DNA from: Eledone cirrhosa
Taxonomy: Eukaryota
DNA length: 64,000 bases
Assembly (NCBI GenBank): GCA_964016885.1
Contig: OZ024745.1
Location: 79,670,001 to 79,734,000, forward strand
Direction: 5' to 3'
The notes under the pieces: generated by a model
What the model saw: only the letters and a program-made list of their open reading frames with translations
What the model was told of the DNA's origin: nothing
Database searches by the model: none
In this document: piece by piece, positions 9,585-9,708 of the stretch
Layout: each line of letters begins with the position of its first letter
Position numbering within the stretch: the first letter of the stretch is position 1
Program-made: the position numbers and the translations under genes

Positions 9585-9708
9585 TATTGAACTCCTTTAA
9601 CCATCTTTTGATCTTATATTATGCATACTCCAGTCCCACAAACTGTAGAGTGCTTCTTATCCGATATCTGCATTGCTTTATTGTACTACAATAAAACTCA
9701 CCTCCTAC

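Follow-up and report, generated by a model that had tools for sequence, protein, structure and literature searches.

A covarying hairpin lies at a near-fixed distance from both ends of a group of Penelope-like retroelements and probably positions the start of their copying

How do Penelope-like retroelements (PLEs) choose their ends, and why is their tail found on one side only? These questions have stood since the elements were described, and the lone in vitro study found internal initiation and no conserved signal. An insertion in Eledone cirrhosa raises them again: it joins a short and a tailed copy of one element family (family A) head to head, and a small hairpin lies at the start of the tail (Table 1). 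We studied it in its surroundings, a stretch of 64,000 nucleotides (64 kb) that we call the window and whose numbering we use throughout. The host assembly measures 3.0 Gb, and the window carries abundant (TA)n and long inverted repeats.

By its sequence, the element that carries the hairpin at 9627-9651 is a young PLE. A genome search gave 40 scored copies of family A, each 100% identical across 213 nt, and in the tandem copies the repeated unit measures 3.9 kb and contains an intact ORF of 800 aa. We take this ORF to encode a Penelope/Poseidon-type reverse transcriptase (RT) with a GIY-YIG endonuclease, from sequence motifs and from the anatomy of pLTR, hammerhead and tail; the Penelope/Poseidon label is likewise presumed from such motifs, the RT tree containing no named reference elements. 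Pfam gave no match for this ORF or for the PLE ORF at 2054-3778 (-), and a comparison of solved structures with the PLE protein profile gave no match either. Of the traits of endonuclease-bearing (EN+) PLEs, pLTRs in tandem or inverted, a type I hammerhead ribozyme motif in the pLTR and an optional tail at one end are present. In the short arm of the insertion, the ORF is reduced to its last 96 codons (8336-8620), which the 3' UTR and the pLTR follow. The hammerhead descriptor spans 9522-9576 in the tailed arm, about 50 nt before the hairpin, and the mirrored arm holds another at 7092 (-). Descriptor matches numbered 577, against 80 in reversed sequence; Rfam made no call at E <= 1 on the window hammerheads among the matches listed (150 of 160). 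Families G and D have variant hammerhead cores (L139, L216, window 49390-49420), CCGAAGA and CTGAAAGA. The family A tail also contains a near-perfect 9-bp palindrome at 9689-9707, and a shorter stem lies at a similar spot in family B.

The hairpin of family A, hereafter hairpin 1, has a 4-bp stem (9627-9630 with 9648-9651), a 2-nt bulge on the 3' side (9646-9647) and an upper stem (9631-9633 with 9643-9645). The motif consensus is a 4-bp NYTC/GARN stem, the 2-nt 3' bulge (TT 40, TC 11, TA 6), a variable upper stem and a 3' RCT. The half-sites are separated by 4 to 37 nt, and the intervening sequence pairs with itself. Individual hairpins are thermodynamically weak, with folding z-scores from +0.7 to -3.0, and RNAalifold recovered the 4-bp lower stem alone. 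Our structural claim therefore rests on covariation. Pairs were counted in 59 distinct hairpins: 30 came from the E. cirrhosa genome and 29 from metagenome contigs in which only one 5' half was a candidate, 19 of the 48 metagenome anchors having been set aside because they were ambiguous or lacked pairing. At the outer position of the 4-bp stem, 38 hairpins have G-C, 14 A-T and four T-A, and the pair is Watson-Crick in 56 against 30.6 after shuffling. The pair above the bulge is C-G in 27 and T-A in 26 (Watson-Crick in 54 against 27.6 shuffled), and covariation extends to the next two pairs above it. Altogether, 96.2% of the cells were paired and 51 double changes were seen against 15.0 in shuffles, values neither of which was reached in any of 500 shuffles, so that the covariation claimed in the original prediction is significant. 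Structures slid along the sequence scored far lower than the real register. A fifth, outer pair, formed by the T of TACTC, had also been placed in the stem; it does not covary (Watson-Crick in 15 of 59, against 20 shuffled) and has to be dropped.

The kinship of the elements does not account for this covariation. A quick RT tree that holds 33 elements shows five changes on one side of the pair above the bulge and six on the other, but only seven when both sides are scored jointly. The counts of wobble pairs, G-T against A-C, are 10 to 4 over three pairs and 12 to 10 over four pairs, and they are no proof that folding takes place in the RNA strand.

The window holds many copies of the hairpin (Table 1). 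A scan for ACTC-N5-30-THGAGT found 21, against 5.1 +/- 2.7 in shuffles, and none of 100 shuffles reached 21. The 11 sites listed beforehand are all present. Most of their coordinates are exact; those at 24903 and 44792 were shifted by 1-2 nt, and the one at 9804 is better placed at 9805-9828 (-). Compensated forms had been reported in other families as well. The GCTC form does occur there (five in the window against 2.0 shuffled, a number reached by 4 of 100 shuffles), and the GTTC..GAAC version is hairpin 1 of family H. We also built a covariance model from 49 hairpins, several window families belonging to this training set, and it returned 21 window sites at E below 1: every site listed earlier except 16503, plus new ones.

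Table 1. Hairpins and associated features of PLEs in the window
Feature	Position	Strand	Basis or remark
Long (tailed) arm, head-to-head family A insertion	8617..9713	+	Partner arm of 6992..8620
Short-ended, 5'-truncated family A copy, ends at short point	6992..8620	-	Partner arm of 8617..9713
Type I hammerhead ribozyme motif in family A pLTR, predicted cut after 9576	9517..9581	+	Descriptor match, stems I-III
Short end point, last element base of short family A copies, 4-7 nt before stem	9619..9622	+	26/33 short ends; TA microhomology blurs
Family A tail, non-coding, ~90 nt	9623..9713	+	Closes at long end point (9711-9713), then (TA)n
Hairpin 1, family A, with 3' GCT 9652-9654	9627..9654	+	Covariation and motif scan
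Hairpin 1, family B	22083..22101	+	Partner short arm ends near 20370
Hairpin 1, family B2	4063..4082	+	Beside PLE ORF 2054-3778 (-)
Hairpin 1, family C	54538..54556	-	Short palindromic copies
Hairpin 1, family C	46325..46343	-	
Hairpin 1, family C	46951..46969	-	Absent from earlier list
Hairpin 1, C-related subfamily	24904..24923	-	
Hairpin 1, family D	9805..9828	-	Register corrected; 4-7 nt after family D short end
Hairpin 1, family E	16504..16537	+	Bulge changed in window copy
Hairpin 1, family F	44792..44827	-	
Hairpin 1, family G	49458..49491	+	G-C outer pair
Hairpin 1, family H	27382..27419	+	GTTC/GAAC form; arm halts at long point near 27495
Hairpin 1, family H	27308..27345	-	Read-through arm
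Hairpin 2, family H	27191..27229	-	Behind long end point
Hairpin 1, family H	54302..54339	-	
Hairpin 1, family I	46111..46134	-	Absent from earlier list
Hairpin 1, family I	47104..47127	-	Absent from earlier list
Further hairpin	22822..22847	-	65 nt before (TA)n junction
Further hairpin, family M-like	50201..50220	-	
Further hairpin, GTTC/GAAC form	53986..54030	+	63 nt before (TA)n
Further match, weak	5374..5417	-	73 nt before (TA)n
Neptune-like PLE, inverted arms, 36-nt tail	16594..20347		Different 5-bp stem near long end

The element ends keep a narrow distance to the hairpin. Most junctions show 1-6 nt of TA microhomology with a linker that is AT-rich and G-poor. Because this blurs the junctions, we scored each of them as an interval. 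The pool omits the sites I_s and B2_s, for which the reference copies are poor, and the Neptune-like site, and it detects ends at most 22 nt upstream; within it, 402 of 452 intervals (23 sites) overlap the positions 5-7 nt before the 4-bp stem, which upholds the near-fixed distance that had been proposed. The value of 2-5 nt given for the short arm holds as a maximal-match distance; unambiguous junctions peak instead at 6 nt (25, of which 24 come from one family) and 5 nt (16). In family F, whose long end shows no microhomology, 24 of 27 copies place this end exactly 6 nt before the stem; the long end of family A fits 3-5 nt, not 6. Among hammerhead-anchored families picked without reference to the motif, a hairpin followed the short end, by eye, in 11 of the 12 that had both a short end and a longer homologous copy. 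Families G and H carry longer TA runs inside their tails, and their copies continue through them.

The two kinds of end are paired with great regularity. Two terminal arms were present in 76 of the 85 head-to-head pairs met incidentally; a short arm was joined to a tailed one in 74 of the 76, and in 102 of 106 pairs in the loci fetched with a tail query. Within the window, the short arm stops a little before the hairpin for the sites at 9626 (arm end 6992), 22082 (~20370) and 49458 (~47505) and for the 46324/54537 family; the copy at 4062 is without an intact short arm. At the junctions themselves, (TC)n tracks the presence of TCT in the element at the start site (16/73 against 3/416, from few families), which suggests slippage at the start of synthesis, a process that would make new microsatellites. 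Tracts of (TC)n between element ends and (TA)n are seen at 20303-20370 and 27495-27560 of the window and in L382-L390, mainly where the start site has TCT.

A second hairpin, which the original prediction did not include, lies behind the long end. It is visible solely in tandem copies that read through the tail end, as 9 of 30 fetched copies of family A do, and there its outer pair is compensated from A-T to G-C. In the tandem copies of this family, hairpin 2 starts 3-5 nt past the long end, with the ORF start within ~75 nt. The distance from hairpin 2 to the start codon is 40-70 nt; both hairpins are non-coding and precede it. We sought a second hairpin in six more read-through families and found it complete in four (B, F, I, F20) and partial, with a mismatch or an odd bulge, in two (H, E). 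No read-through copies occurred among 66, 35 and 35 tailed copies of families C, D and G, respectively. The sole second hairpin inside the window is that of family H, and its partner arm stops at the long point. Non-coding tandem units of families H (530 nt) and E (~820 nt) retain both hairpins. The family H unit (L251-L280; window 27191-27509 and 54224-54465), with a hammerhead and the two hairpins, resembles a non-LTR retrozyme.

The motif extends well beyond E. cirrhosa. With a profile built from the family A protein and related proteins, we retrieved 79 metagenome loci at 28-43% protein identity. In 34 of these loci, a hammerhead was present with 90 nt of sequence or more on its 3' side. 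Among the 34, the motif followed the hammerhead in 30 and was present twice in 11, against 4.2 and 0.14 in shuffles; the opposite strand of the same loci gave seven and none. Applied to 49 loci outside the alignment, the covariance model gave 41 matches, 37 of them on the sense strand, and pairs spaced 59-75 nt apart in 12 loci, two of which are near-duplicates of others. Contigs with both a read-through and a terminal copy also gave the position of the end, in a comparison that covered repeats with the motif nearby: by maximal match it lay 3-5 nt before the stem in seven of nine informative loci, the outliers being L428 (0 nt) and L468 (-4 nt). Rows from L433 were rejected as element ends, being TA-rich chance matches. 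In L419, a PLE with 37% protein identity to family A, hairpin 2 (438-460) has 23 bases identical to window 9628-9650 in hairpin 1; the whole upper loop is common to the two, and the outer pair is swapped from A-T to G-C. The motif is a real, conserved RNA element within a known class of retroelements.

Not all PLEs share it. In family E hairpin 1 is present, yet none of 34 copies shows a short end; families F6, F8, F11 and F12 carry hammerheads but lack either a clear motif or a second end. In family F5, a matching hairpin lies 4 nt after the hammerhead cut and overlaps a hammerhead stem; short ends predicted near this cut were rejected, as none of 43 copies ends there. Tandem units of ~310 nt in L360 each contain a hammerhead, without a recognised hairpin. 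The Neptune-like family, whose ORF at 17898-19784 matches Pfam RVT_1 and GIY-YIG, shows two precise ends 36 nt apart and the pairing of short with long arms. Its only version of the motif is a 3-bp look-alike, broken in five tailed copies. Because this family has two ends and a weak motif, initiation at two sites does not need the motif everywhere. The window also contains what we take, from sequence motifs, to be fragments of other retroelements, at 32105-35412 (+), 56934-60745 (+), 40334-42145 (-) and 29019-31537 (-): presumably two LINE-like copies with endonuclease and RT, one further RT and one decayed Neptune-like ORF.

What does the hairpin do? It is a covarying structure, it is duplicated, its two copies keep a fixed distance to the two ends, and short arms are paired with tailed ones. 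Because each copy sits 5-7 nt behind an element end, the hairpin likely tells the copying enzyme where to start, that is, it is probably a cis RNA signal that positions the RT for internal initiation just upstream. The mechanism that we infer draws on Poseidon_Ac (PAc), which in the available text of the study cleaves and extends both strands in vitro and initiates internally at two sites, between which the tail lies; RNA up to +172 is needed and a dimer is predicted (Frangieh et al. 2024, PMC11167929). By analogy, the endonuclease of the element would nick a (TA)n target on both strands. At hairpin 1 one RT would be held and at hairpin 2 another, possibly as a dimer on one tandem transcript, and each would use one nick as its primer, with the AT-rich linker of 5-7 nt beside the primer end. 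Joined head to head in the insertion, the two cDNAs would form arms of unequal length, and the difference, the tail, would equal the hairpin spacing exactly. A fuller version, which we offer tentatively, makes the twin hairpins the docking sites, on a single tandem transcript, of a telomerase-related RT that works as a dimer, with each hairpin acting as a ruler that starts a cDNA ~6 nt upstream, one per nicked strand; their spacing alone might then generate the tail and the head-to-head form, and slippage might make the microsatellites.

Other readings of the same facts have to be weighed. The hairpin might direct a cut in the RNA 5-7 nt upstream, by a host nuclease or an element protein, and so create two RNA 3' ends for ordinary end-primed target-primed reverse transcription. 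Such a cut would account for the same distances and the same covariation, and RNase P-type cleavage 5' of a structure, a known route to RNA 3' ends, offers a precedent. We nevertheless consider it unlikely, since a hammerhead is already present ~50 nt upstream and since, in the available text on purified PAc, a longer RNA 3' end left the product size unchanged and synthesis depended on RNA lying 3' of the start sites (PMC11167929). The motif might also act in DNA, if the GIY-YIG endonuclease recognised the donor copy or single-stranded cDNA, cut at a fixed distance and resolved an over-long intermediate into short and tailed ends. The wobble counts leave the folded strand unfixed, the tail has been attributed to endonuclease-mediated resolution (Craig et al. 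2021, PMC8557442, as far as the available text goes), and the Drosophila Penelope endonuclease is cited as requiring the tail for cleavage (in the available text of PMC11167929). A half-site spacer of 4-37 nt that pairs internally is, however, a poor fit to a double-stranded site, the start sites of PAc mapped in vitro agree with genomic ends according to the same text, and the association of (TC)n with template TCT is expected of synthesis that starts and slips there; action in DNA is thus quite unlikely.

Very unlikely, in our judgement, is a hairpin that binds an element protein for packaging, translation control or ribozyme folding, with ends that merely reflect the annealing of an AT-rich single-stranded stretch to a (TA)n primer. 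The microhomology at most junctions, the AT-rich, G-poor linker and the location of hairpin 2 ahead of the start codon would all suit it. Against it, the long end of family F holds its exact 6 nt with no microhomology to guide it, and the longer internal TA runs of the family G and H tails are passed over. Chance might also produce palindromes in the AT-rich ends of repeats: short stems are frequent, and many shuffles fold as well as a single hairpin does. The shuffle, slide and held-out controls reject this reading, however, and the covariation and the prediction of a second hairpin refute it, leaving it a negligible probability. Positioning of the RT by the hairpin is the reading that we prefer.

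Because the motif covaries and keeps a fixed distance to both ends, it pinpoints the bases to mutate, compensate and move, and the covariance model marks PLE ends in new genomes. If the hairpin does position the RT, it would be a template-positioning element in the closest transposon relatives of telomerase, and it would explain why both signals occur together in tandem copies only and which parts non-coding retrozyme-like units have to retain. Were the docking sites also confirmed, a portable element of 25 nt would make it possible to have any RNA copied by a PLE enzyme from an internal position of choice.

The RNA element is apparently previously undescribed. We found no description of it in the available literature on PLEs; subscription journals and the notes of Repbase and Dfam may hold an earlier mention. 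Rfam 15 has no match over the motif in the window among the matches listed (150 of 160), nor in 12 metagenome loci. The main text of the PAc study, as far as available, describes no conserved or paired motif, and places a reported start inside the loop of an AC-rich stem-loop (+111-118), not upstream of it (PMC11167929). Because that start lies in a loop and the ends reported here lie 5-7 nt 5' of a stem, our motif is not the AC-rich stem-loop as described. As far as that text goes, the two systems are alike in their two internal starts bounding the tail, AT-rich targets, priming of both strands, an upstream hammerhead and the requirement for RNA 3' of the starts. They differ in that the PAc sites are inside the ORF with a start in a loop, whereas here they are non-coding and 5-7 nt outside a stem that is, moreover, duplicated and conserved across distant elements. 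In the printed PAc template, we saw by eye a UCUC/GAGA stem from 7 nt after +118 and no second stem, which we regard as a lead only.

Published PLE tails and inverted pLTRs (Craig et al. 2021, PMC8557442; Arkhipova et al. 2013, PMC3846280) resemble ours, in the available texts, in the optional tail at one end, head-to-head arms, partial tandems and microsatellite bias. Those tails measure 30-40 nt, and ours 76-116 nt, with hairpin spacings of 59-75 nt in the metagenome loci; no sequence or structure signal is named for PLE ends in the available parts of the two papers. The hammerheads of PLEs and the non-LTR retrozymes (PMC4209133, PMC7229834, bioRxiv 10.64898/2026.07.22.740005) share with our elements the type I hammerhead in the pLTR and, with families H and E, tandem non-coding units. 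The available texts of these papers treat the ribozyme and not a downstream motif. Here, the H and E units keep both hairpins. In the R2 3' UTR, the 3' stem-loops of LINEs and SINEs, hepadnavirus epsilon and the telomerase template boundary, a small RNA structure bound by the RT sets where copying starts or stops. The hairpin described here differs from these in lying 3' of an internal start, in being omitted from the copy that it would launch, and in being paired to set two ends.
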